A stretch of 64,000 bases of DNA from a virus, in the IMG/VR virus record IMGVR_UViG_3300021963_005223, positions 1 through 64,000 of that record, one strand, 5' to 3'. The notes below the pieces were generated by a model. That model was not told where the DNA came from. It was given only the letters and a program-made list of their open reading frames with translations, and did not search any database. Shown here in pieces: positions 3,160-63,015 of the stretch. Every line of letters starts with the position of its first letter. Position 1 is the first letter of the stretch. The position numbers and the translations under genes were made by a program.

Positions 3160-4027
3160 TAAAACAGTTTTAACTTGTGCAGTCACAGGTGCTGTAACTT
3201 CAAGAGAACAAACTCCACATCTACCTGTCACTCCAGAAGAAATCGCTACATCTGCACTAGAAGCAGCTGAAGCTGGCGCAGCTGTTGTTCATATTCATGT
3301 TAGAGATGTAATTACTGGTAGACCTAGCATGGAATTGGATCACTATCGTGATGTTGTTGATAGAATTAAGAAACAAAACAACGATGTTCTTATTAATTTG
3401 ACTACTGGTCCAGGTGGATTCTTTATTCCCGATTTACAAAGAATTGAAATTGCTGGTAAAGGTACTACTGTGTTTTCTGCAGAAAAACGTGTCAAACATA
3501 TTCAAATGATTAAACCTGATCTTTGCTCATTAGATTTTAATACAATGAATCAAGCTGGTGATGGTATTCGTCTAAATCATAAGAAGATTGTGAAACAAAT
3601 GCTGCATTTGATTCAAGAAGCAGGAACTAAACCTGAATTGGAGATTTTTGGTTCAGGCGATTTTATGCTGGCAAGAGAATATGTTAAAGAGGGATTGGTT
3701 AAAGGTAATCCTCTATGGCAATTTGCGTTAGGTGTTAAGTATGGATTTGAATGCACACACGAAGCAGTCAACTACTGTCAATCGATGTTGCCAGAAAATA
3801 GTTTATGGTCTGCGTTTGGTATCGGTAGAGAAGAAATGCCGATCGTAGCCAATACTTGGTTGTTGGGTGGTCATGTCCGTGTTGGATTGGAAGACAATAT
3901 ATATCTAGAGAAGGGTGTTTTAGCAAAAACCAATGCAGAGTTGGTCACTAAAGCAGTTAGAATAATCAAGGATCTTGGTGGTGAAATTGCCACTTATGAT
4001 GAAGCAAGAAAAATTTATTTGAGTTAA
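3149..4027 (+). CDS. beta-keto acid cleavage enzyme (BKACE / Kce / DUF849 family)
   Basis: TCAVTGA, EAGAAVVHIHVRD and HVRVGLEDN motifs. Confidence 0.93.
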   Translation: MRNNKTVLTCAVTGAVTSREQTPHLPVTPEEIATSALEAAEAGAAVVHIHVRDVITGRPSMELDHYRDVVDRIKKQNNDVLINLTTGPGGFFIPDLQRIEIAGKGTTVFSAEKRVKHIQMIKPDLCSLDFNTMNQAGDGIRLNHKKIVKQMLHLIQEAGTKPELEIFGSGDFMLAREYVKEGLVKGNPLWQFALGVKYGFECTHEAVNYCQSMLPENSLWSAFGIGREEMPIVANTWLLGGHVRVGLEDNIYLEKGVLAKTNAELVTKAVRIIKDLGGEIATYDEARKIYLS

Positions 4028-49081: not shown

Positions 49082-52000
49082 ATGATCGATTTCAATACCG
49101 AACCATATAATGACGATTACGACGAGAACAGTAAATTCTATAGAATTTTGTTCCGTCCAAGTTTCGCTCTACAGGCTCGTGAATTAACACAATTACAATC
49201 TATCCTTCAGAAACAAATCCAGCGTCATGGAGATAATATCTTCAAACAAGGTTCAATGGTTCTGCCTGGACAAATATCGATTGATACTAATGCACAATAT
49301 GTTAAATTGCAGCCATTATATAATGGCGTAGCTGTAGAAACATTTTTATCTAATCTTAAAGATAAAGTTATTGTTGGTTCAAATAGCAGCCTGACAGCAG
49401 AAGTTATCAAAGTTCAAAGTGCTGAGCAAACTGAGCCATCAACAATTTATGTTCGTTATAAAAATTCTGGAAGCAACAATACAACTAAAGTATTTGCTGC
49501 AGGAGAAGTAATTACAACAGAAGATACTCAATATTCTTTCCAAGCTATAGCAGATACCCCAACTGGAATGGGTTCAATTGTTTCCATTGAACGTGGTGTT
49601 TATTACGTTAATGGTTTCTTTGTTCTAGTTGGCGCACATTCTATTATTCTTGACAAATATAGCAACACACCATCATATCGTGTTGGATTGAATGTAGAAG
49701 AAAAAATTGTTACTCCTGAAGAAGATGCAACTTTATTGGATAATGCCCAAAATAGTTTCAACTATGCTGCTCCAGGTTCTCATCGTTATTATATCGATTT
49801 AACTCTAAAGAAAGTTTCTTTAGAGTCAGCTTCTGACGCCAACTTTATTGAATTGCTACGTGTTGAAAATGGTGTCAATAAAAAGATTACTACTAAGACA
49901 GAATATTCTGTTTTAGAACAAACACTGGCTCGTCGCACTTATGATGAGTCTGGTGATTATACTGTAAGAAACTTCAATATTGATATTCGTGAACATCGCA
50001 CAAATAATCGTGGCGCATGGATACAAAATACTGCATTCTTAATCGGCGACGTTGTCACTAATGCTGGTAAAACATATGTAGCTAAAAATAGTGGAACTTC
50101 TGTTACAACTGCTCCAGTACATACTACTGGTACCGCATATGATGGTCCAGGATCTACTGGTATTCAATGGGAATATACAACAACACCAGTTTACAATCGT
50201 GGCATCTACAAAAATGGTGATGAGTCTAAACTTGCTATCGGTTTAGAGCCAGGAAAAGCATATGTTCGTGGATATGAGATTGAAAAGATCGCCACAGAAT
50301 ATGTTGCTATTAACAAATCTCGTGAATATTCTCAGGCAGATAATGCTTTTATTTCTGCAGAAATAGGTAATTATGTTGTAGTCAACAATCTATGTAAGAT
50401 TCCTCCAATCGGAACTAATGCTGTAGTTAATCTGAGAGATCAATTAACTGCAACACGTGGAACTGAAGCAGGATCTATCATTGGTACTGCACGTGTTCGT
50501 GGTATAGAATGGGACAATGGATCAATTGGATCTACTACAGCATCATATAAGTTATTTTTGTATGATATCAATATGGCCAGTGGTAAACAGTTCTCTAGAA
50601 ACGTTAAATCGTTTGGATTGACTTCAACAGGATTTACTGCTGATGTTAACCCAATCACTACACCATTAATTGGTTCTGTTACTGCTGCTGGAACAACTGT
50701 TACTGGTAATGGAACTTCTTTTTTAACAGATTTAATTGTTGGTGACTATATTTACGTTAACAACGCATCATATAGAATTACTGCAATCGCTTCTCAAGTT
50801 TCATTAACAATATCTGCTTCTCTAACTGCAACAAACGCAGCATATAGTTTAGTCAAAACTAACGTGTTAGCAACTAATCTAGAGAAGTCTTTATTCAGTT
50901 TACCATATAGCACAGTTCGTTCTTTAAGAAGTGCATTATCAACGAATGATACTTCTTACACAGTTTCAGCATTATACAGCGAAACTGTAGCTTCAGGTAA
51001 TATTAACTTGAATGCTGCAGCAGGAACTTTTGCTTCTGGTTCTGTCACTGGAAACTTTATTGTGACTAGAAATGATAATGGTGATATTATTCCTATTAAC
51101 AGTGTAACAGTAACAGGAAGTTCTGCCACTATTAACGTTGGCACATTATATAATGGTGTTACTTGTACTATTGTTGGAACATTAAACAAAACTGGTTCTA
51201 GTTCTACAGAGAAAACTAAAACACACGTTACTGGTGCGACTAAAACATTTACAACTTTAACAACAGTTTCTCCAACAACATTATCTTTAGGTAAAGCTGA
51301 CTGCTGGAAGATTAACAGCGTTAAAATGGATTCTGGTTCTTTTGCATCCCCAACAGGTTCTTATACTATCGATATTTCTGATCGTTATGAATTTGATAAT
51401 GGTCAAAGATCAACCCATTATGATCTTGGTAGAATTGTATTAAAAGATACATACGCTCCACCATCTGCACCTATACAAGTAACTTTTGAATATTTTACTC
51501 ATTCAGTTGGAGATTATTGCAGCGTTAATTCATATCCTGCAACTATTTCATATTCAGAAATTCCAGCAGAATTAAGAGATGGTTTAGACTTCCGTCCAAG
51601 AATTGATGACGATGGCATTAACTTCAGCACGGTAACTCAATTACCAAGACGTGGTTCTAACATAACTACAGACTTTACTTATTATTTGTCCAGAAAAGAA
51701 AAAATTGCTGTTGACATAAATGGTAATTTCTTTAATATTTCTGGAACATCATCTATTAATCCAGGTGATGCTGAAGATTCTTCAACAGGAATGATTCTTT
51801 ACAAACTAACTCTTTCTCCTTATACTTTTGATACTACAAGCAACAATATTAAAATTGAATCTGTTGATAATAGACGTTATACAATGCGCGACATCGGTAA
51901 ATTAGAAAAGCGTATTGATAACTTAGAATATTACACTTCACTTTCGTTACTAGAACAACAAACTGAGTCTTTAAAAATAACAGACTCTACTGGTCTAGAC

Positions 52001-55000
52001 AGAATGAAGAATGGATTTATAGTTGATAACTTTACAGGTCACGGTATCGGCGCAGCTGATTCTGTAGACTATCGTTGTTCAGTTGATATGAACAAAGGTG
52101 AGCTACGCCCATTCTATACAATGAAAAACGTCAATTTAATTGAAAAGGCATCTACTAATGCTGCTCGTTCAGCAGCAAAATATTCACAATATGGAGATGT
52201 TATAACTCTTCCAATCTTAGAGAATGTTCCGTTAATTAAACAACAGTTTGCTTCTCGTTTAGAAAACATCAATCCATTTGCAGTATTCACTTTCCTTGGT
52301 GATGTTAAACTAAATCCTCAAACTGATGACTGGTTTGAAACTGAACGTCGTCCAGATATTATCAATAATATAGAAGGTAATTTTACAACAATCAATACTC
52401 TTGCTGAAAAAGCTGGAGCATTGGGTACTGTTTGGAATGCTTGGCAAACTCAATGGACTGGTCAACAAGTTAGTGGAACATTTGGTTTTGCAAACGCAAA
52501 TTCTGGTTCAGTTAATTTCGGTGGAGTATTTGGAACTGTTAGCGCAAACTTTGGTAGCAGAGGTGGTGGTGCACGTCGTTGGGTTACGGCAGAACTAACA
52601 GCCACTCAAGTTGGTCAAACACGATCAGGTATCAAAACTGATATTGTAGCAAAAATTGATAAACAAATTGTTGCCGATCGTGTATTATCAACAGCTGTTA
52701 TTCCATATATTCGTTCTAGAAATGTTTTAGTTCAAGTTCGTGGTTTAAAACCATTAACACGTTTCTACCCATATTTTGATGATGTAGATATGTCTGCGTA
52801 TTGCACGCCAGCATCCAAAATTACTTATACATCAACTAGCGGAACATTTGATGCTACAACAAACGTAGGTGGTATCGCTACTGAAGAAGCACGACGCATT
52901 AATGGCGATTCTCAAGTTTGTTTGAATCGTGGTGATTATATTAGAGGTGTTACAAGTAATGCTACTGCTGTTGTAATTGGAACTGAAACGGATTATGACA
53001 CTAATACTAAATCTTTATTTGTTGTAAACATAAAGGGAACATTCCAGAATAATGAACAAATTACTGGTTCTGTTTCTAATGCAGTTGGAGTTATTAACTC
53101 CATCACTGTAAATGCAACAGGTGGAAATCTTGTAACTAATAAGAGTGGCGATGTTAATCTACTATTCTTTATTCCAAATACAGACTCAGTTCGTTTCCGC
53201 ACTGGCTCACGTGAGTTTAAACTTGTAGATAGCTCTACTGCAAATGGCGCATTTACTTCTCGTGGTCGTGCTCAATATAGAGCAGAGGGTATCGTTGAAA
53301 CTAAACAAGCAACTGTAAATGCAGTACGTAATGCTGAGTTGGTTCAGAACGTAGTCGAAGATAGCAGAACTATTATTGAGACATCTTCACGTGTTCTATC
53401 AGACACAGGTTGGTATGACCCTCTTGCACAAACATTCTTGATCGACAACAAAGGTGGTGCATTTTTAACTAAGGTCGACATTTTCTTTGCAAGTAAAGAT
53501 ACTGCTATTCCTGTCACTTTGGAAATTCGTGAAGTTATAAACGGATATCCAGGTAAGCGTGTTTTACCATTCTCACGTGTAACTCTACGTCCAGAGCAAG
53601 TAAACATTTCAACTAACACAGTTGATTTAGATGGAGTAGCAACTCCTACATTTGATACTCCAACATCGTTTGTGTTTCAATCTCCTGTTTATGTTCAGGA
53701 TGCATCTGAATATTGTATCGTTTTAATTTCAGATTCTAACAAATATAAATGTTGGATTTCTCAGTTGGGTGATACTGTCCCAGGAACAAGCAGAACTATT
53801 TCTGAACAACCATATCTTGGATCGCTATTTAAATCTCAGAATGCTTCAACATGGACAGCAGATCAAACTCAAGATTTAATGTTTACAATATACAAAGCTA
53901 AATTTGATATATCTGGAGTTGGAACAGTTCAGTTTGTTAATGATGTTCTTCCTTATACCACATTAGATACAGATCCATTCCAAATGACTGCTGGATCTAA
54001 TATTATTCGTGTATGGCAAAATAATCATGGTTTAACAGATGGTTCTAAAGTAACTATCTCTGGTGTTTCTGGAACATTAAATGGTATACCTGCTGCAGAA
54101 TTAAATGGAACATGGTTTATAAGTAATATTGACGTTGATTCTTATACAATTACTACAACAACCACAGCAACTAAGACTGGCTATTATGGTGGAACTACAG
54201 TAAGAGCTACTGGACAGGTTCAATATGATTCAGTTATGCCAGTTGCTCAAGTTCAAAATTTCTCAGAAACTTCTACAACATATTCATTGAAAACTACATC
54301 TGGAAGATCAGTTGATGGTTCTGAAACTCCATATGTTCAGGATATTTCTTTCGGTGCTTGTTTAGTTAATGAGAATAACTATTTTTATAGCCCACGTTTA
54401 GTTTCTTCTGAAATAAACGAAAATACATTTACTGGTGGCAATAAATCAGTGACTTTTGCTATAAACTTATCTTCAACTAATAATTCTTTATCGCCAGTTT
54501 TAGATACACAGCGTATGAGTTTGATTGCTATTTCCAATAGAATTAACTCTCCTTCTCATACCAATACCAATGTAACTCCAACTGACTATACTCAGTTATT
54601 TACTGGCGCAACGGGAGCATTTAGCTTCTCTGGCTCTACAATAACTTCCACTGTTTCTGCAGTTAGAAATTTAATGCAGACTATCGGTATTGGTCAATTT
54701 ATTAGAGTAGAGGGAACTACAACTGCTGGAAACGCTGGAACTTATCTTGTAACTGATGTCATCGACAATGGAAGTAATTGCACGATTACTGTTTCTGGAG
54801 TAACATTTACTTCTGAAAATGCGGTTACTGGAACTATAGTTTCTACAGTTAACCTGTTTACAGACGAGATTGCTCCAGTAGGATCTTCAACGATTTCCAA
54901 GTATGTTTCCAAGACTATTAAATTGGCTCTTCCATCTACATTCATGAAGATCAGGTATTCAGCCAATATTCCAAACCAGTCTGACGTTTTAGTTTATTAT

Positions 55001-55231
55001 AAGACTATTTTGGGGTCTTCGGGTAATATAGATAAGACTAAATATACTTTAGCAACCCCTATTTCAACACCAACTAAAGTTGAAAATGGAAATGAAAGAT
55101 TCTATGATGTGGACTACTCTTTAAATAATTTGAATCCATTCGATACTGTTCAGGTCAAGTTAGTTATGAAGTCTACTAATACATCTGCAGTTCCAAGAAT
55201 TAAAGATTTAAGAATTATTGCATGCGCATAA
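49082..55231 (+). CDS. large virion structural protein (VrlC / DUF4815-like)
   Basis: PYNDD..FRP..QARELTQLQ, ARRTYDESGDY, RYTMRDIG, DPLAQTF, LFKSQNASTW. Confidence 0.85.
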   Translation: MIDFNTEPYNDDYDENSKFYRILFRPSFALQARELTQLQSILQKQIQRHGDNIFKQGSMVLPGQISIDTNAQYVKLQPLYNGVAVETFLSNLKDKVIVGSNSSLTAEVIKVQSAEQTEPSTIYVRYKNSGSNNTTKVFAAGEVITTEDTQYSFQAIADTPTGMGSIVSIERGVYYVNGFFVLVGAHSIILDKYSNTPSYRVGLNVEEKIVTPEEDATLLDNAQNSFNYAAPGSHRYYIDLTLKKVSLESASDANFIELLRVENGVNKKITTKTEYSVLEQTLARRTYDESGDYTVRNFNIDIREHRTNNRGAWIQNTAFLIGDVVTNAGKTYVAKNSGTSVTTAPVHTTGTAYDGPGSTGIQWEYTTTPVYNRGIYKNGDESKLAIGLEPGKAYVRGYEIEKIATEYVAINKSREYSQADNAFISAEIGNYVVVNNLCKIPPIGTNAVVNLRDQLTATRGTEAGSIIGTARVRGIEWDNGSIGSTTASYKLFLYDINMASGKQFSRNVKSFGLTSTGFTADVNPITTPLIGSVTAAGTTVTGNGTSFLTDLIVGDYIYVNNASYRITAIASQVSLTISASLTATNAAYSLVKTNVLATNLEKSLFSLPYSTVRSLRSALSTNDTSYTVSALYSETVASGNINLNAAAGTFASGSVTGNFIVTRNDNGDIIPINSVTVTGSSATINVGTLYNGVTCTIVGTLNKTGSSSTEKTKTHVTGATKTFTTLTTVSPTTLSLGKADCWKINSVKMDSGSFASPTGSYTIDISDRYEFDNGQRSTHYDLGRIVLKDTYAPPSAPIQVTFEYFTHSVGDYCSVNSYPATISYSEIPAELRDGLDFRPRIDDDGINFSTVTQLPRRGSNITTDFTYYLSRKEKIAVDINGNFFNISGTSSINPGDAEDSSTGMILYKLTLSPYTFDTTSNNIKIESVDNRRYTMRDIGKLEKRIDNLEYYTSLSLLEQQTESLKITDSTGLDRMKNGFIVDNFTGHGIGAADSVDYRCSVDMNKGELRPFYTMKNVNLIEKASTNAARSAAKYSQYGDVITLPILENVPLIKQQFASRLENINPFAVFTFLGDVKLNPQTDDWFETERRPDIINNIEGNFTTINTLAEKAGALGTVWNAWQTQWTGQQVSGTFGFANANSGSVNFGGVFGTVSANFGSRGGGARRWVTAELTATQVGQTRSGIKTDIVAKIDKQIVADRVLSTAVIPYIRSRNVLVQVRGLKPLTRFYPYFDDVDMSAYCTPASKITYTSTSGTFDATTNVGGIATEEARRINGDSQVCLNRGDYIRGVTSNATAVVIGTETDYDTNTKSLFVVNIKGTFQNNEQITGSVSNAVGVINSITVNATGGNLVTNKSGDVNLLFFIPNTDSVRFRTGSREFKLVDSSTANGAFTSRGRAQYRAEGIVETKQATVNAVRNAELVQNVVEDSRTIIETSSRVLSDTGWYDPLAQTFLIDNKGGAFLTKVDIFFASKDTAIPVTLEIREVINGYPGKRVLPFSRVTLRPEQVNISTNTVDLDGVATPTFDTPTSFVFQSPVYVQDASEYCIVLISDSNKYKCWISQLGDTVPGTSRTISEQPYLGSLFKSQNASTWTADQTQDLMFTIYKAKFDISGVGTVQFVNDVLPYTTLDTDPFQMTAGSNIIRVWQNNHGLTDGSKVTISGVSGTLNGIPAAELNGTWFISNIDVDSYTITTTTTATKTGYYGGTTVRATGQVQYDSVMPVAQVQNFSETSTTYSLKTTSGRSVDGSETPYVQDISFGACLVNENNYFYSPRLVSSEINENTFTGGNKSVTFAINLSSTNNSLSPVLDTQRMSLIAISNRINSPSHTNTNVTPTDYTQLFTGATGAFSFSGSTITSTVSAVRNLMQTIGIGQFIRVEGTTTAGNAGTYLVTDVIDNGSNCTITVSGVTFTSENAVTGTIVSTVNLFTDEIAPVGSSTISKYVSKTIKLALPSTFMKIRYSANIPNQSDVLVYYKTILGSSGNIDKTKYTLATPISTPTKVENGNERFYDVDYSLNNLNPFDTVQVKLVMKSTNTSAVPRIKDLRIIACA

Positions 55232-55476: not shown

Positions 55477-56649
55477 ATGGCGACACTCGTTTTAAGACAA
55501 ACTAAGGGACTACCCCTTACCAACGCTGAAGTTGATGGGAACTTTACCAACTTAAATGATGAGTTGGCGACCAAACTTCCTTCCACCTCATACACTGCAG
55601 CTGACGTTTTAACAAAAATTAAGACTGTAGATGGAACAGGTTCTGGTTTAGACGCAGACCTTTTAGATGGTCTAAGCACTAGTTCAACCTTACCAGGAAT
55701 TGTGGATAAAAGTTCTGTTGTGACTCGAGACACATCTGGTAATACTGCCCTAAACCAATTATCGCTTACTGGTGCATTATCTGGTACAACTGCTACATTT
55801 AGTGGTGGTGTTTCAGTTGGCTCAATCACTATAGCAGGTGGATCCATTCCAGTTTCTGCTGGTGGTACAGGAGCTACAACTGCTCAGAATGCAAGAATAA
55901 ATTTAGGTTTGGTTTTAGATACAGACGTTCAAGCGTATAATTCAAATTTACAAGCATTATCTGCTGCTTCACCAGCAGCAGATAGATTACCATATTATAC
56001 TGGTGCTTCCACTGCAGCTTTAGCAACTTTCACTTCTTTCGGAAGAACTTTAGTTGCTTCTACTGACGTTTTTGCTGCAAGAACTAATCTTGGTTTAGTT
56101 TTGGGTACTGACGTACAACCTTTCTCAGCTGAACTTTCTTCTGTAGCTGGTTTGTCGACTACTGGTATAATTATCAGAACTGGTGCTGGAACCAAAGCAA
56201 CAAGAACTATTACAGGAACAGCTGGAGAAGTTGTTGTAAGTAATGGTGATGGTGTAGCTGGAAACCCAACATTAAGTCTTGGTACAGGTATTGCAAAATT
56301 ATCTGCAAATAACACCTTCGCTGGAACTAACACTTTCCAAGTAATTTATGCAACTGAAGTTAATACAACCTCAGACGAAAGACTGAAAGAGAACATCCAA
56401 ACGCTAAATAATGCTGTGGATATTGTTAATAGTTTGCGTGGCGTAGCCTATATTAAGGGTGGCAAAGCAGAACTTGGTTTGATAGCTCAAGAAGTTGAAC
56501 AGGTTATCCCTCAAGTTGTTGGGACAGATATGTCTGGTTATAAAACCATCGCCTATGGAAATATGGTTAGTATATTGGTCGAAGCTATCAAAGAACAACA
56601 AAAAACAATTAGAGAATTAACTACTCGTTTAGAGAAACTGGAGAAATAA
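55477..56649 (+). CDS. tail fibre protein with C-terminal S74 intramolecular chaperone
   Basis: LDADLLDG, ARxNLGL repeats, SDERLKENI, GLIAQEVE. Confidence 0.88.
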   Translation: MATLVLRQTKGLPLTNAEVDGNFTNLNDELATKLPSTSYTAADVLTKIKTVDGTGSGLDADLLDGLSTSSTLPGIVDKSSVVTRDTSGNTALNQLSLTGALSGTTATFSGGVSVGSITIAGGSIPVSAGGTGATTAQNARINLGLVLDTDVQAYNSNLQALSAASPAADRLPYYTGASTAALATFTSFGRTLVASTDVFAARTNLGLVLGTDVQPFSAELSSVAGLSTTGIIIRTGAGTKATRTITGTAGEVVVSNGDGVAGNPTLSLGTGIAKLSANNTFAGTNTFQVIYATEVNTTSDERLKENIQTLNNAVDIVNSLRGVAYIKGGKAELGLIAQEVEQVIPQVVGTDMSGYKTIAYGNMVSILVEAIKEQQKTIRELTTRLEKLEK

Positions 56650-56650
56650 T

Positions 56651-57031
56651 ATGGCAATTCATGCAGCAACTGGATTTAAAAGATCTGATGGAACAGATGT
56701 AGTAAACCTGTTCTGGAACTACTATGATGCAGGTAACAGAAACTATACTGAAGGTAATGGTAACTGCGGATGGAACTGTGCATGTAATAACTGTAATTCC
56801 AACTGTAACTGTAACTGCGGTAACTGCGACGCTGGAGATATTTCTATTAACGTAGCTACTACCGATAGACGTATTAACATGTTCCGCAACACTGCTTATG
56901 CAGACGGTATCCGTCACGACAATCAAGATAACACTTTAGGTGGTTTCCAATGGTTCCGCACAAACTGTAACTGTAACTGTGCATGTAACTGTAATTGCGC
57001 TTGCGACTGTGCTTGTGCTTGTGCATGTTAA
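56651..57031 (+). CDS. Cys-rich (Xaa-Cys)n protein, candidate rSAM substrate
   Basis: 19 Cys in two clusters. GGAG RBS, 1 nt after the fibre stop codon. Confidence 0.8.
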   Translation: MAIHAATGFKRSDGTDVVNLFWNYYDAGNRNYTEGNGNCGWNCACNNCNSNCNCNCGNCDAGDISINVATTDRRINMFRNTAYADGIRHDNQDNTLGGFQWFRTNCNCNCACNCNCACDCACACAC

Positions 57032-57045
57032 TGGAGACAGAATAA

Positions 57046-57975
57046 ATGTTTAAAATTATTAAAACTCAAATTACAGCATCTTTAAAAGAAGGTTCTGAGA
57101 TTGGTATAAATGCCAATTATAGAACAACAATGGGCTATAATTCTGAAGACAAAACAATTTCAGTAAAAGTAGAAAAATTAAACAGACCAGATTTGACTCG
57201 TGAAGAAAATTTGGAAGTAACATACACAGAAGTAGCTTCTAGAATATTTGGTTTAGAAGATTTTCCACAAAATACTGATAACATAACTTGGTTCACTGAG
57301 TATGATGTTGAAGCAAATAAAATTTCAGATCCGATTGAGATTTGGGATTGGGTTGCTACATTACAACAAAAGACTCCTCCTGCTCCAAATGTTCCATATA
57401 CTATCGGTTCTTTACAAACAGACTTCGCAGCTCACTTTACGCCAAAAATACTTCCATTATTTCATTTAGGTTCTTTCAATAAATCAGTTGAAAATTTTGA
57501 AGGTTCATTGTTACAATTTTACGTAACAAATGCAGACCAAACTACATTGGCTCCACATGATACAATTTTAACAGATCCAAATCTAGAAGTTAAAACTTCA
57601 TTAGAAAAATCTCAGTGGAGTAGTATCAATATTTTACCTATGCTTTCATACAATTTACTAGACGCTAATGGAGATGTAGTTGAAGTTGAACAGACTAAGA
57701 TGGTAACACCTCGTCACCAAAAAGTAACTTTACCTAAAGCTGATGAATATTCTGTTAGAATTAACTTCACTAAACCTGCATTTAAAAATATTTCCAATAC
57801 ATATAATGTTTCAGTGGTTAATGGCGGAATTAATAAAAATAGGATTGTAATTTCAGAAGGATCTTCTGTTGTTCTAGTTAATGCACGTGGACTAAATTCT
57901 GGAGACTTCGTTAAAGTTAAGCTAAATATTGGAAAGTATAATAGTTTCGGTGAATTCTGGATTAATATTCAGTAA
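57046..57975 (+). CDS. hypothetical protein
   Basis: GGAG RBS, no recognisable motif. Confidence 0.7.
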   Translation: MFKIIKTQITASLKEGSEIGINANYRTTMGYNSEDKTISVKVEKLNRPDLTREENLEVTYTEVASRIFGLEDFPQNTDNITWFTEYDVEANKISDPIEIWDWVATLQQKTPPAPNVPYTIGSLQTDFAAHFTPKILPLFHLGSFNKSVENFEGSLLQFYVTNADQTTLAPHDTILTDPNLEVKTSLEKSQWSSINILPMLSYNLLDANGDVVEVEQTKMVTPRHQKVTLPKADEYSVRINFTKPAFKNISNTYNVSVVNGGINKNRIVISEGSSVVLVNARGLNSGDFVKVKLNIGKYNSFGEFWINIQ

Positions 57976-58045
57976 ATTTGAACTAATAATTTTGAAATAA
58001 ATACTCGATATCTTGTCGAGTATTTTAAATAATTTAAAGGTGAAT

Positions 58046-59521
58046 ATGAGTAAATATAGATTAATTCTACAGGGTTCTAATGATGTAAAAGAAGTTTTGG
58101 TTTATGATCCAATAACTTCTGAAATGGTTTGGGAAGAATCTGGGGAAAGACCATCCTTGCAGCATTTGGGTCAAGATATCGAATATAAAGTTACAGCATC
58201 AAAACAGTGGAAACCATTTAAGGTTACCAATCCACACGACCCAGATCTGCATGGTCGTAAATCCAAAAAGCCAACAACATTAAAAATTACCATGGGTCTT
58301 AAGTGCAATTTTAAGTGCACTTATTGTAACCAAGCTCATCAGCCACACGATCCAGTTGGTGGTCCAGAAGATGCGGATGATTTAATCCAAAAAATCAAAA
58401 CAAACTTTGAACTTGGAACTTATGACCCAGTAAGAATCGAATACTGGGGTGGAGAACCATTTGTTTATTGGAAAACTTTAAAACCACTATCTGAGAAATT
58501 GCGTAAAGTGTATCCAAAAGCACAGTTTACTATTGTTACCAATGGTTCTATGTTAGATCGAGAAAAAGTCGACTGGCTAAACCAGATGGGATTCTCAGTA
58601 GGTATGTCTCATGATGGTCCATTGCATGCTCAAAATCGTGGACCAGATCCATTGGATGATCCAAAGATGCGTTTCGGTATCGCTTACGCATTAAAAACTA
58701 TGGGTCAAATGCGTTTTTCTTTTAACGCAGTTTTAACAAGAGAAAATGTTTCTTTAGCTGCAGTAAGAAACTTTATTCTTGATAAAATTAACCAAAGACA
58801 TCCAGATTACCCTGATCAACCTGGTATTGATCAGCGAGAAATTCATGTTACCACTGAAGAATTGCTGTTACCGTATGACGATGATGGAATGAAACATTCA
58901 TTGGTTACTCCAGATGAAAAGAAGATGATTCTTCATAACCTTTTCTGGGAAACAATTAATCAAAGAAATGAGTTTAGTTGGACTGTGCATAGTAAAATTA
59001 AAAACTTTTTTGACAGTTTGATTAATCAAAGACCTGCTGAGGCTCTTGGTCAAAAATGCGGTATGGATAGAGAAGACAATATTGCGATTGACATGAAAGG
59101 TAATGTAACCACTTGCCAAAATACTTCTTCTTTGACTAAACACCATATTGGTAACATTGAAGATTTTGATAATATTCGTTTAACTACTTCATACCACTGG
59201 AGTACTAGAAGTGAGTGTCCAAGTTGCCCAGTAGTTCAATTATGTCAAGGTGCTTGTTTATTCTTAGAAGACAAGTATTGGGAACAAGCGTGTGAAAACT
59301 TGTTCTATTATAACTTGGCGATGCTGGCTTCTTCTCTGTTTATACTTACAGGAGGTCTTGTACTAGTAGAAGTACAAGGAGAAAAGATAAGAAACGAAGG
59401 AATCACTTCGATACCAGTTATTGATATTAATTTTGTCAAATCTGATGGTAAAGAAACTTCCTGGAAAGTTCGTAAACCAATCGGTATTCCAGTTGTAACA
59501 GTTCCAGTTGGCTTGCAGTAA
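58046..59521 (+). CDS. radical SAM protein with SPASM domain
   Basis: CNFKCTYC (CxxxCxxC), WGGEP, SHDG, CPSCPVVQLCQGAC (Cx2Cx5Cx3C). Confidence 0.93.
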   Translation: MSKYRLILQGSNDVKEVLVYDPITSEMVWEESGERPSLQHLGQDIEYKVTASKQWKPFKVTNPHDPDLHGRKSKKPTTLKITMGLKCNFKCTYCNQAHQPHDPVGGPEDADDLIQKIKTNFELGTYDPVRIEYWGGEPFVYWKTLKPLSEKLRKVYPKAQFTIVTNGSMLDREKVDWLNQMGFSVGMSHDGPLHAQNRGPDPLDDPKMRFGIAYALKTMGQMRFSFNAVLTRENVSLAAVRNFILDKINQRHPDYPDQPGIDQREIHVTTEELLLPYDDDGMKHSLVTPDEKKMILHNLFWETINQRNEFSWTVHSKIKNFFDSLINQRPAEALGQKCGMDREDNIAIDMKGNVTTCQNTSSLTKHHIGNIEDFDNIRLTTSYHWSTRSECPSCPVVQLCQGACLFLEDKYWEQACENLFYYNLAMLASSLFILTGGLVLVEVQGEKIRNEGITSIPVIDINFVKSDGKETSWKVRKPIGIPVVTVPVGLQ

Positions 59522-59861
59522 TATGTCTTTTTTGAAGTGCAAAATCTGGCTGGTTGAGCAATATCCAAGATATGGGTCTAATTATAATTTGTTCCCAATA
59601 TCTGATATTATAGATTATGATTCTGATAATACATTTTATGACTATAAAGAAGATAAATCCCAGCATTTTATAAATATGATGGTTCCAGAATTTGAAATTT
59701 ATGCAACAGAAGAACAGATTGAAATTTTAAATAAATATACTGAAGAGATTATCAGTAAAAAGATTCCGATACTTAGAAATGTGCAAAAGGGTGATGTGGA
59801 GTATTGGATGATAGATACTACATTTTTAGACTATCATCTTAAAACAAAAAATATCCAATAG
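59508..59861 (+). CDS. hypothetical protein
   Basis: ORF fills the gap. Start uncertain. Confidence 0.5.
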   Translation: MACSNMSFLKCKIWLVEQYPRYGSNYNLFPISDIIDYDSDNTFYDYKEDKSQHFINMMVPEFEIYATEEQIEILNKYTEEIISKKIPILRNVQKGDVEYWMIDTTFLDYHLKTKNIQ

Positions 59862-59870
59862 GAGAAAAAA

Positions 59871-60818
59871 ATGAATGCAAAACATGTTAAATGGGTCATT
59901 GCACATGAACCTATCGGCTTGTTTCTTAAAGTAGCGGATCGTTTCGCTACAGAAGTAAACGAGAAGACTGGTGGAATGTTCAATATTGAAGTTTTATCAT
60001 TGTCAGATTATTCTGCAAAATATAACGATGGCAAAAAGATCACTAAAAATGAGTTAATGACTTTAGTTGATTCTGGTGCTATTGAAATGAGCCACATCTA
60101 TACTACTTGGTTAGCTGATTATAATAAAGATCTACATGCTTTAGATCTACCTTTCTTATTCCGTGACCACGATCACGCTGATGCAGTTCTAGAAGGTGAA
60201 ATTGGTACTGAGTTGTTAGCTGGTGTATCTAAGAATTCTAATATTCACGCTATGTCTTTCACTTACTCTGGTGGTTATCGTGTTGTTCCAGCTAACTTCC
60301 GTGCTGATACTGTAGAAGCATGGAGAGGTCAAGCTGTTCGCACTTCACGTTCTCCAGTAGCTGTTGAGACATTTAAGTTACTAGGTGCTGAGCCAAAAGA
60401 GCACATCGCTCTAGAAGAAATGAATGAATATGCAGATAAAGGTGAAATTGCTGCTGGTGAATCAACTTACGTTCGCATTTTCCCACTAGATCAGTATAAA
60501 TCTTTTAAAGTTGTTAATGACACTGCTCATAGCTTGTTCTTAACTTCTATTATTGTTAACAAAGACTTTATGGCTCAGTTTGACGAAGAAACTCGAGAGA
60601 TTCTAGCTACTGCTGCATTTAATGCTGCTCGTGTAGAGCGTCGTGAATCTGTAGCTGACATTCCTAACATCTTGGCTGAATGTCAAGAAAAAGGTGTTGA
60701 AGTTGTTCGTATGTCTACTGAAGAACAGAAGAAGTTCCAAGAAGTTACTTCTGCTGTTTATGAAAAGTTTGCAGACTATTTCACTCCAGGATTAGTGCAG
60801 AAAATTAAGTTACAATAA
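59871..60818 (+). CDS. dctP: TRAP transporter solute-binding protein (DctP family)
   Basis: EVNEKTGG, LDLPFLFRD, RTSRS, FKLLGA, TAHS. Confidence 0.85.
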   Translation: MNAKHVKWVIAHEPIGLFLKVADRFATEVNEKTGGMFNIEVLSLSDYSAKYNDGKKITKNELMTLVDSGAIEMSHIYTTWLADYNKDLHALDLPFLFRDHDHADAVLEGEIGTELLAGVSKNSNIHAMSFTYSGGYRVVPANFRADTVEAWRGQAVRTSRSPVAVETFKLLGAEPKEHIALEEMNEYADKGEIAAGESTYVRIFPLDQYKSFKVVNDTAHSLFLTSIIVNKDFMAQFDEETREILATAAFNAARVERRESVADIPNILAECQEKGVEVVRMSTEEQKKFQEVTSAVYEKFADYFTPGLVQKIKLQ

Positions 60819-60834
60819 GCGTTTTGACAAATGA

Positions 60835-60854
60835 TGGGGAGCTTCGGCTCCCCA
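60835..60854 (+). terminator. GC-rich UUCG hairpin, probable terminator or stability hairpin
   Basis: TGGGGAGC-TTCG-GCTCCCCA. Confidence 0.7.
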
Positions 60855-60884
60855 AAATAATTATTCCTTTTAATCAATTTTACA

Positions 60885-61937
60885 ATGACTATGAATAAAG
60901 AATGTTTATATTATAATTGCTATAATGTTCCAGAAGTAATACAAGCTGGAGATAAAAGTATTGAACCTTATCTATCACCAGATTATTCAGATAAAGTTTT
61001 CCAGTTTTATAGAAAATATAAAATGGATTTGACTAATGTAGTATGTGATAGAATGGATATCCTTCCACATTATATTAACATAAAAAAGAATCAATTTCCA
61101 CTACCAAAAATTGAGCCAGATTTTAATATGTCTTTTGCTGAGTGCGTTGAAAAACGAGCAAAAGAAATTTTGGCACTCAATAAACCAATAACGGTAGTTT
61201 GGAGCGGTGGTATTGATAGTACACTTGTAATATTTTCACTGCTTCAATTTTGCAATGACCCATCACAAATTACTGTTTATGGAACTTATAACTCTATTGT
61301 AGAGTCTGGTGATGTATTTGAAAAATATATCCTGCCAAGGGGTGTCAAATATCAGTTTGCAGTATCATCTAGAAAATACTTTAAAGATGATACACAAATC
61401 TATATCTCTGGTTTTATGGGTAATCAATTATTTGGACCAGTTGATGATTTTTCATATTCAAAAGCTACATTGTTTCATCACCATCTTAGAGGTAATGGTG
61501 ATATTGAAGATTCTTACGAAACTGTGTTGACTGAAGAGATGCACGAGTTTTTATTACCTGCACTTAAAGCCAGTCCAAAGAAAATAGAAACTGTTAGAGA
61601 TTTACGCTGGTTTGGTATTTTTATGTTAGATTGGCACCAGTCATATTATGATATTTTAATCAAAACAAAAAATTATGATAAAGTTTATCATTTTTTTGAT
61701 GATGCTGATATGCAAAAATATTCTATGACAACAAAAGAGCCATACACAAAAGTAAAGGGAAACCCTCTGACCCATCGCTGGGTCATGAGGGAATTAATTG
61801 AAGAGTGGGGGAAGTGCTCTCACTATGCTTGGAACAAACCAAAGAGTATATCAAACTTGGCCAATAGAGCTGCTGACTGGTATTTTATAATGCCAGATCA
61901 TAGTTTGATTACTCCAAACAATATTAAATTTAATTAG
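60885..61937 (+). CDS. asparagine-synthetase-like PP-loop ATP pyrophosphatase
   Basis: WSGGIDST, ISGFMGNQLFG. Confidence 0.7.
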   Translation: MTMNKECLYYNCYNVPEVIQAGDKSIEPYLSPDYSDKVFQFYRKYKMDLTNVVCDRMDILPHYINIKKNQFPLPKIEPDFNMSFAECVEKRAKEILALNKPITVVWSGGIDSTLVIFSLLQFCNDPSQITVYGTYNSIVESGDVFEKYILPRGVKYQFAVSSRKYFKDDTQIYISGFMGNQLFGPVDDFSYSKATLFHHHLRGNGDIEDSYETVLTEEMHEFLLPALKASPKKIETVRDLRWFGIFMLDWHQSYYDILIKTKNYDKVYHFFDDADMQKYSMTTKEPYTKVKGNPLTHRWVMRELIEEWGKCSHYAWNKPKSISNLANRAADWYFIMPDHSLITPNNIKFN

Positions 61938-62563
61938 TAATTAACAAACCCAACATAAACATTTAAGAATACTTGTGCTTGGTCTGATAAATTAGTTTCA
62001 ACGTAGCGTTGCAAATATCCTGGAGTGACAACAATTTCACCAACACGAGCACGAATTCCATAGTTTGTTGCAACTAAACCATTAGAAACCAGTTGGCGAA
62101 TTGTTTGGACTCCACCTCTTGTATCAGCGAAATATGTGTTTGGTGGGAACTGTCCTGTATGCAAAACGAATGTTAAAATTAGAGGAACGTGTTCATAGCA
62201 ATGTAATGGTACATGCTCTTGTGGCTGTTGGAAAAATACGCTAGAACCAAGGATCTCGGGCAATCTCTTTAGATCTTGATTTTCTTTATCTTCAAATTCT
62301 TCTAATTGCTTGCAAGTACTATATACGAACCCTCTAAATTTTTCTACTAGTGGGTTGTCAATACCCATAATATTTACATTCCCAGTTTCATTATTATGCT
62401 GGTTGTAAATAGCTAAAAATTCATTGAGTTCTTCTTCATTTAAATTAAAAGAAAAACAGCGCAAAGGTGTTGGGAAAAGTGATTTTTCGAATGTTTTTGT
62501 CACTTCAATAGAAGTTTCTTGACTTGTAGAAACTTCAGTCTGGGGTTGTTGATTTTCTTGCAT
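61934..62563 (-). CDS. 2OG-Fe(II) oxygenase-like protein (possibly degenerate)
   Basis: LFPTP N-terminus, DTRGG, GEIVVTPGYLQRYV. Confidence 0.55.
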   Translation of the reverse strand: MQENQQPQTEVSTSQETSIEVTKTFEKSLFPTPLRCFSFNLNEEELNEFLAIYNQHNNETGNVNIMGIDNPLVEKFRGFVYSTCKQLEEFEDKENQDLKRLPEILGSSVFFQQPQEHVPLHCYEHVPLILTFVLHTGQFPPNTYFADTRGGVQTIRQLVSNGLVATNYGIRARVGEIVVTPGYLQRYVETNLSDQAQVFLNVYVGFVNY

Positions 62564-62679: not shown

Positions 62680-63015
62680 GTGGCTACAGTTACAAACTTA
62701 TACGTAGATCAGGGTTCGTTTTACAGAACTCACGTCACAGTTGCTAATTCCGATGGGAATGCTCTGGACTTAACTGGTTTTACTGTTGCTTCTCAGATGA
62801 GAAAGTCATATCAGTCTTCGACTGGATTTAACTTCACAACTTCTATAAGTAATCCGACTCAAGGTAGGGTTAGACTTGAACTAACTTCTGAACAATCAAG
62901 AGTCATCCCTGCAGGTAAATATCTTTATGATGTTGAAATTCTATCTCCAACAGGGGAGAGAACTAGAGTCGTTGAAGGTATAGTTTTAATAAACCCAGAA
63001 ATCACGAAGATCTAA
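62680..63015 (+). CDS. virion / tail-associated protein
   Basis: NLYVDQGS, QMRKSY, YLYDVEI, RVVEG. Confidence 0.75.
   Translation: MATVTNLYVDQGSFYRTHVTVANSDGNALDLTGFTVASQMRKSYQSSTGFNFTTSISNPTQGRVRLELTSEQSRVIPAGKYLYDVEILSPTGERTRVVEGIVLINPEITKI

Follow-up and report, generated by a model that had tools for sequence, protein, structure and literature searches.

The window analysed here is a stretch of 64,000 nucleotides (positions 1 to 64,000 of IMG/VR record IMGVR_UViG_3300021963_005223) from an 81-kb piece of the genome of an uncultured T4-like myovirus, a record estimated to be 45% complete, which puts the full genome at about 170 kb with a GC content of 33-40%. At 56651-62563 of this window, inside the late structural operon, lies a cassette of genes that includes a small cysteine-rich protein and a radical S-adenosylmethionine (SAM) enzyme with a SPASM domain. 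Upstream of the cassette are genes for the baseplate hub, wedge and tail tube, a 2049-aa VrlC-like protein (phrog_358), and, on the plus strand at 55477-56649, a 390-aa tail-fibre protein with matches to many tail-fibre PHROGs and a C-terminal S74 intramolecular-chaperone domain (PF13884, E 3.7e-13, 50 bits against a cut-off of 22, residues 299-348). The first cassette gene begins 2 nt past the stop codon of this fibre gene and is translationally coupled to it by this gap. Downstream, virion genes restart at 62680 with phrog_1084/3304 and then a fibre-like protein. The initial annotation of this DNA, made from the sequence alone, had described the same arrangement: an S74 fibre in front, resumed tail genes behind, and a set of open reading frames (ORFs) in between, all of which are present at the coordinates that it gave. 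The whole cassette occurs, with its order unchanged, in 13 related viral contigs.

The gene coupled to the fibre gene (56651-57031, plus strand) encodes a 126-aa protein that we presume to be the substrate of the radical SAM enzyme. It contains 19 Cys, as first noted from the sequence, and 18 of these fall within two (Cys-X)n blocks, one internal (NCGWNCACNNCNSNCNCNCGNC) and the other (NCNCNCACNCNCACDCACACAC) a C-terminal tail that reaches the stop codon. All repeat Cys are invariant in 12 relatives (57-82% identity), and the C-terminal run in these homologs ends at, or no more than one residue from, the stop codon; no other such run occurs in the 81-kb record. The ORF is a real, conserved gene, and its Cys run is far beyond chance. 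A tblastn search of the protein against phages came back empty, an outcome for which the low-complexity filter is the probable cause. In a metatranscriptome contig (run X6), 127 nt are skipped at 56834-56962, between the two Cys blocks; because this length is not a multiple of three, the skip is likely a repeat-induced assembly artefact. A spike in read depth over 56522-57095 in run X13 suggests that the repeat is common to many related phages.

The radical SAM enzyme (58046-59521, plus strand) is 491 aa long when read from the ATG at 58046, which is the probable start because homologs begin there; the ORF itself opens with a TTG at 58013. It scores above cut-off both with the radical SAM model (PF04055, 41.5 bits against 29.5) and with the SPASM model (TIGR04085, 37.1 bits against 27), and it matches phrog_1802 with E 7.7e-63. 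We took as a SPASM domain a C-terminal seven-Cys domain that includes Cx2Cx5Cx3C and binds two auxiliary [4Fe-4S] clusters. Across 14 homologs (43-73% identity), the CxxxCxxC motif (C98/C102/C105) and seven SPASM Cys (C349, C368, C402, C405, C411, C415 and C427) are invariant, so the enzyme class originally assigned is well founded. The protein is laid out as an N-terminal three-strand β domain, the radical SAM core, the seven-Cys SPASM domain and a C-terminal extension. Its AlphaFold2 (AF2) model (predicted local distance difference test score (pLDDT) 81.9, predicted template-modelling score (pTM) 0.85) has CteB (5WGG/5WHY), the anaerobic sulfatase-maturating enzyme anSME (4K39) and TigE (8VPO) as its nearest solved structures. 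A complex prediction of the enzyme with the 126-aa protein scored 0.00, the fold of the 126-aa partner being uncertain, and speaks neither for nor against their pairing.

The family to which this enzyme belongs is large, with more than 1,373 proteins at E ≤ 1e-10; homologous stretches number 580 in IMG/VR contigs and 242 in assemblies of bacterial genomes. The bacteria concerned are mostly freshwater Alpha- and Betaproteobacteria (for example Limnohabitans, Polynucleobacter, Ferrovibrio, Rhodospirillales), and the genes found there presumably belong to prophages or to phage contigs binned with them. Three cultured phages also carry the enzyme, Ralstonia phage RSP15 and Achromobacter phages JWF and 2-1, with the gene directly after the tail-fibre genes.

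We called and clustered ORFs in 149 non-redundant loci (labelled by L-numbers below) and followed the association of enzyme and Cys tails in both directions. In the forward direction, we searched the 101 distinct loci with at least 3 kb of upstream sequence for a same-strand (Cys-X)≥3-Cys run no more than 6 kb upstream of the radical SAM gene. Such a run was present in 93 of the 101, and the density of Cys runs upstream of the enzyme was about 50 times that elsewhere in the same loci. Some of the misses are shorter tails: ORF048 of RSP15 ends NTNCQCGN, and in the T4-like relatives L195-L246, which the search pattern also missed, all fibres end '...NCxNCNC(NC)'. In the reverse direction, IMG/VR was scanned at the DNA level for patterns encoding (Asn-Cys)4, which yielded 118 loci. 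Unique, in-frame, C-terminal (NC)≥4 tails on ORFs of 80 aa or more, with at least 4 kb of downstream sequence, numbered 28, and a radical SAM gene of this family accompanied 27 of them; the remaining one was accompanied by a distant radical SAM gene. (Asn-Cys)4 outside that context, in short ORFs and giant-virus low-complexity sequence, had a radical SAM gene in only 1 of 54 cases. The enzyme family and C-terminal (Asn/Ala/Asp-Cys)n tails therefore co-occur in both directions, and the linkage with Cys-repeat ORFs and fibre genes that the initial annotation had put forward as a check is borne out. At one locus (L339:2312-2700), two tandem small ORFs, each with an (NC)n tail, lie 5' of a single radical SAM gene of the family, and one enzyme may thus serve several tailed substrates.

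A survey of 145 unique tails gave 3-11 Cys per run. The last Cys is the C-terminal end of the protein in 68 of the 145, and most of the others have no more than seven extra residues. Nine tails (L032, L044, L048, L125-L128, L134 and L136), along with gp028 of JWF (L002:5679-7130), lead directly into a Hint-type autoprocessing domain ('C[FS][PL]xGT.V.[ML]ADG'), cleavage by which would proceed via a thioester intermediate and expose the tail as a C-terminus. Judging from these arrangements, the tail appears always to end up as the mature C-terminus. The residue before the Cys is Asn in 95%, 97% and 88% of tails at the first three repeats, and Asn, Ala or Asp at later ones. His-rich stretches such as 'HLDTNHHFDPHHHH' stand just before the short Cys tails of L195-L206 and L246, at about 3200-3400 of each locus.

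Tails of this kind could have a purely structural role. The Cys might form a metal-binding or disulfide ladder at the fibre tip, with the radical SAM enzyme doing another assembly job on a different residue or protein, or with the tail as merely its docking tag. Strict Cys-X-Cys alternation in an extended strand would set all thiols on one face, the His-rich stretches directly before short tails in T4-like relatives suit a metal site, and covalent, Cys-based fibre attachment is known from cyanophage Pam3, whose fibres are tethered by disulfides (PMC9942802). However, such a ladder leaves unexplained both the near one-to-one co-occurrence of tail and SPASM enzyme across myo-, sipho- and Ackermann-like phages and the near-invariant choice of Asn over other small residues at the first three repeats, and SPASM maturases characteristically target Cys-containing peptide segments. 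We therefore consider this explanation improbable.

What carries the tails is informative. The C-terminus of phage fibres is their distal, receptor-binding end. Most tail carriers (cluster 1) are proteins of 200-700 aa with PHROG tail-fibre matches, encoded in the tail modules of RSP15, JWF and T4-like phages. Among the relatives are T4-like loci, L091 and its kin, whose radical SAM enzymes are 34-41% identical to ours and which also carry the 117-aa protein, DctP and PP-loop genes described below. The N-terminal part of the window fibre is shared in L091 and in L195-L246, where it runs into a tip domain and a short Cys tail; in the L091 kin this fibre homolog is without an S74 domain and has the Cys tail as its C-terminus. 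The lineage of the window thus seems to have split the module into an S74 fibre and a separate tail protein. Profile comparison of the 126-aa family with fibre tails (hhalign, 97%) aligned the two over the tail only. Since the tail is a fibre C-terminus, or is capped by a Hint domain, in most relatives, the 126-aa protein is best read as a detached fibre-tail module, not as a secreted peptide.

This bears on a further alternative, that the cassette makes a free peptide of the RiPP type (ribosomally synthesized, then post-translationally modified), a bacteriocin or signal, from a 126-aa precursor unconnected with the virion. Its gene content does look RiPP-like (a Cys-rich small ORF, a SPASM enzyme, an AsnB-like enzyme and an oxygenase-like protein), and the hypervariable host-recognition regions of T4-like aquatic phages hold auxiliary genes (PMC7029224). 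On the other hand, the cassette ORFs contain no leader protease, exporter or transporter domain, the homologous tails of most loci form part of fibre proteins 200-700 aa long, and the 126-aa gene is coupled to a fibre gene within a late structural operon. We accordingly rejected the secreted-peptide reading and regard it as very improbable. The two-way linkage and the fibre C-terminal tails support instead the original suggestion of a phage that modifies a protein of its own, perhaps an adhesin or the tip of a fibre.

The conserved core of these loci comprises the Cys-tailed protein, a three-β-sandwich protein, a double-stranded β-helix (DSBH) protein and the radical SAM enzyme. One lineage (L022/L024/L067) keeps the tail protein, the β-sandwich homolog, the radical SAM enzyme and the DSBH protein, but DctP, the PP-loop enzyme and the 117-aa protein are absent from it.

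The β-sandwich partner in the window (57046-57975, plus strand, 309 aa) has no family match in hidden Markov model (HMM) libraries, in keeping with its first description as a protein of no assigned family. Profile comparison relates it over its C-terminal domain to cluster 2 (hhalign, 95.8%, E 7e-9), a family of proteins of about 290 aa present in 60 of the 101 loci, usually as the gene after the tailed fibre. Pairwise BLASTP against the neighbouring proteins of RSP15 and JWF found nothing, so that the homology is visible only by profiles and fold comparison. The AF2 model (pLDDT 80.6, pTM 0.77) consists of three β-sandwich domains and matches uncharacterised viral proteins of 250-315 aa in BFVD along the entire length of those proteins (template-modelling scores 0.61/0.68, E 1.8e-15), including a protein of Ralstonia phage RP12, whose genome also encodes a radical SAM homolog. 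Fold neighbours in the PDB are generic Ig-like or pilus-chaperone-like proteins only (Z ≤ 9); PDB profile searches with this protein and with the DSBH protein found nothing, and an Atlas search with it scored below 0.8, too low to be informative. The initial annotation had proposed looking here for a RiPP precursor recognition element (RRE), a candidate that we rejected on the strength of the all-β sandwich model. The protein could be a presenter or chaperone for the tail, or a distal structural part.

The DSBH protein (61934-62563, 209 aa) is encoded on the minus strand at the far end of the cassette. It is homologous to cluster 3 (phrog_81 E 1.1e-6; hhalign 91.6%, E 8.4e-7), which occurs in 64 of the 101 loci as a PF13759/phrog_81 2-oxoglutarate (2OG)-Fe(II) oxygenase with its H...H pattern intact. 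In the window protein, the facial triad is degenerate (H121-x-Y123 ... R186, invariant in 13 subfamily members), with two of the three canonical metal ligands (HxD/H...H) missing, and it may therefore not be a canonical oxygenase. Thus, the 2OG-oxygenase-like gene of the first description stands as regards homology, and its metal triad does not. The protein could be a hydroxylase or the non-catalytic descendant of one.

From these observations we infer that the cassette serves the maturation of a virion protein, with the radical SAM enzyme targeting the 126-aa protein at its C-terminal (Asn/Ala/Asp-Cys)n tail and with thioether formation as the most likely reaction, a reading to which we assign a probability of roughly 0.6. 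A 5'-deoxyadenosyl radical would take a hydrogen from a carbon of a residue neighbouring the Cys, for which the near-invariant Asn of the first repeats suggests Asn as the acceptor, and the Cys thiolate, held on an auxiliary SPASM cluster, would capture the resulting radical. The product would be a ladder of thioether cross-links, of the ranthionine or sactionine type, either confined to one chain or joining the three chains of a fibre tip, and a tip cross-linked in this way would be rigid and insensitive to redox conditions and proteases. The 57046 and DSBH proteins would be conserved co-factors of the modification, with DctP, the PP-loop enzyme and the 117-aa protein as a separable accessory module. 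Chemistry that joins Cys sulfur to the Cβ of Asn is known for NxxC peptides. It has been the subject of a review (PMC8326336). More tentatively, and with somewhat less than an even chance in our estimation, the same would hold for phages of several unrelated morphotypes, in which a dedicated radical SAM/SPASM enzyme, a β-sandwich presenter and a DSBH protein would together turn the C-terminal Asn-Cys tails of receptor-binding fibres into a thioether ladder, perhaps one that joins all three chains.

The scores of the enzyme against known maturase families leave room for other reactions. Its best NCBIfam match is PapB, a ranthipeptide maturase (NF047865, E 3.9e-19), and anSME is second. All of the named maturase families remain far below their cut-offs, with 69 bits against 340 for PapB, 41.9 against 425 for SCIFF (TIGR03974), 52.7 against 525 for the CrpC type (TIGR04463), 47.8 against 453 for QhpD (TIGR03906) and 61.6 against 349.45 for anSME (TIGR03942), and we therefore regard the enzyme as a family of its own. 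It might, then, modify the tail without making thioethers, by anSME-like conversion of Cys to formylglycine, epimerization, C-methylation, or C-C or C-N cross-linking, possibly alongside a hydroxylation carried out by the DSBH partner. The absence of any curated cut-off that is reached favours such a reaction, as do the second rank of anSME and its structural closeness, equal to that of CteB, the annotation of gp030 of JWF as an anSME, and the canonical PF13759 oxygenase partner in 64 of the 101 loci. Yet for chemistry of the anSME type the tail lacks a C/S-x-P/A-x-R sulfatase motif, as does the whole 126-aa protein, which contains no proline; moreover, the best match is to a ranthipeptide maturase, and a seven-Cys SPASM domain combined with a Cys-dense substrate is the typical context of thioether formation. 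A non-thioether modification of the tail thus seems to us unlikely.

Several further points weigh against a thioether-forming virion maturation cassette. First, judged by these same scores, which fall far short of the cut-offs of every characterised maturase, family membership does not fix the type of reaction. Second, later positions of the tail accept Ala, so Asn cannot serve as acceptor at each repeat. Third, neither the radical SAM enzyme nor the 57046 protein matches the RRE model PF05402, and neither predicted fold has a PqqD-type sheet with a three-helix winged helix-turn-helix; the N-terminus of the enzyme, where the initial annotation had proposed looking for an RRE, forms three strands in the AF2 model (15-20, 26-32 and 37-40, pLDDT 86-94) with no helices after them, so that no canonical RRE is predicted there. 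Fourth, hhalign detected no homology between the N-terminal 95 residues of the 126-aa protein and fibre tip domains, and the attachment of that protein to the S74 fibre is a presumption. Fifth, the needle of T4 gp37 contains His-coordinated iron, and the His-rich stretches with their alternating Cys suggest that a metal site like these HxH sites would suit the tails as well. Finally, genomic linkage alone, such as we found here, does not amount to proof of an enzyme-substrate pair.

Several characterised systems offer comparison. One is CrpC/CrpA of Methanococcus voltae (Dieter et al. 2026; PMC13692751), in which thioethers are placed by a SPASM enzyme on an entire Cys-rich protein. CrpC is of the TIGR04463 type, with three [4Fe-4S] clusters, and installs several ranthionine thioethers, including some in the C-terminal segment of its substrate (PMC13692751). 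As in that system, the phage enzyme is encoded beside a gene for its presumed substrate, a Cys-rich protein and not a short peptide. It differs in its low score with the CrpC-type model, in the strict Asn/Ala/Asp-Cys alternation at the extreme C-terminus, and in its setting in a tail-fibre module with β-sandwich and DSBH partners and no predicted RRE. With PapB/PapA (freyrasin) and CteB/CteA (thermocellin), the cassette shares a radical SAM core with SPASM domain, Cys-dense repeats and, presumably, acceptors of the Asp/Asn type. In contrast, the substrates of PapB and CteB are leader peptides that are recognised by an RRE and exported, whereas those of the phage enzymes would be fibres or the 126-aa protein, and the phage cassette has no leader protease, exporter or RRE fold and scores far below the PapB cut-off.

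Two other enzymes act on Cys within proteins. QhpD is a SPASM enzyme that makes Cys-to-Asp/Glu intraprotein thioethers in the small structural subunit of a larger assembly. The QhpD/QhpC pair matures quinohemoprotein amine dehydrogenase and bears no relation to the phage cassette in substrate, context or partners; the QhpD score is likewise low. With anSME there is comparable similarity in sequence and structure, and the anSME target is also a Cys within a full-length protein; the phage cassette, by contrast, contains no sulfatase and no CxPxR motif, and the anSME cut-off is not reached. Among phage devices, the S74 and Hint modules, both present in these loci, also mature the C-terminal fibre tip. 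They are autocatalytic and leave no cross-link, whereas the radical SAM cassette would be an enzymatic modification acting in trans.

The maturation routes known for phage tail fibres depend on chaperones and self-cleaving domains. A covalent change made to the receptor-binding tip by an enzyme, if real, would give virion assembly, particle stability and host recognition a further layer, and radical chemistry of the RiPP type, familiar from secreted peptides, would then reach into virus particles as well. Thioether ladders on fibres would be the first case in which a structural protein of the virion is cross-linked enzymatically after translation in the manner of a RiPP, and both fibre stability and host range would gain a new determinant. 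Full-text literature searches found no paper tying radical SAM enzymes to tail fibres; a study of pelagimyophages mentions that the host-recognition cluster behind VrlC contains 'radical SAM cassettes', and no more (PMC7029224). Because RSP15, JWF and 2-1 are in culture, the hypothesis is directly testable, and a short, defined tail (NCNCNC...) with its enzyme could serve as a portable tag for protein stapling.

The remaining genes of the cassette appear to belong to a distinct module. Between the radical SAM and DctP genes, the plus strand encodes a conserved 117-aa protein (59508-59861), which holds this syntenic position in more than 20 loci of T4-like relatives (27-41% identity) and has no family match in HMM and PHROG searches. 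It is followed at 59871-60818 (plus strand) by a DctP-family solute-binding protein of the tripartite ATP-independent periplasmic (TRAP) transporter type (PF03480, E 5e-40, 138 bits against 23.4), as the initial annotation had recognised. This protein is leaderless: it has no signal peptide and starts six residues before its first strand. It keeps the carboxylate-binding Arg ('VRTSRSP' aligns to 'IRTLQSP' of 4P47). The transporter subunits DctQ and DctM (PF04290, PF06808) were not found in the 81-kb record, which is 45% complete.

The third gene of this group (60885-61937, plus strand, 350 aa) encodes a putative PP-loop enzyme of adenylating type, AsnB/QueC-like and without a glutaminase domain. 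Its SGGIDS motif belongs to an invariant S107-G-G-x-D-S-T, in line with its first description as an Asn-synthetase-like PP-loop enzyme; there is no Pfam or NCBIfam match. Comparison with the PDB gave weak PP-loop motif matches only (LarE, E 0.2), and its Atlas clusters are viral, one of them automatically named 'Asparagine synthase family', with Asn synthase or QueC as the automatic names of its neighbours. In 55 of 60 loci, a homolog of this enzyme has a DctP gene as its partner, and 46 of the 60 contain the radical SAM gene too. About a dozen viral contigs (L200, L211, L214, L215, L222-L225, L227, L230, L231 and L238) carry the DctP and PP-loop pair with no radical SAM gene within 7 kb. The pair is therefore a separable, widespread two-gene phage module, and not, as first supposed, part of the core tailoring enzymes. 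We read it as dealing with a carboxylate of some kind in the cytoplasm; a connection with the Cys tail would be speculation.

Exact copies of the DNA turn up in freshwater and lake metagenomes that stem from 12 studies (2013 to 2025). Identical contigs were present in a freshwater metatranscriptome library, which is no proof of transcription as DNA carry-over is possible. A blastn search of the cassette against INPHARED phages gave no match, and a sigma-70 promoter scan returned matches no better than those in shuffled sequence. A terminator-like scan located a GC-rich hairpin with a UUCG-type loop on the plus strand at 60835-60854, just past the stop codon of DctP and ahead of the PP-loop gene; its 8-bp stem contains six GC pairs, and it is possibly a terminator or an RNA stabiliser.

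Two observations concern other parts of the window. The VrlC-like protein (49082-55231) is 31-45% identical over about 1,400 aa to ORF044 of RSP15 (L001:9295-14142), which lies directly 3' of the RSP15 radical SAM gene, and this homology indicates that the giant structural protein and the radical SAM cassette travel together in two very different phages. In the early/middle region, a 474-aa protein at 6180-7604 matches phrog_4752 ('tRNA methyltransferase', E 6e-48) over its C-terminal half.

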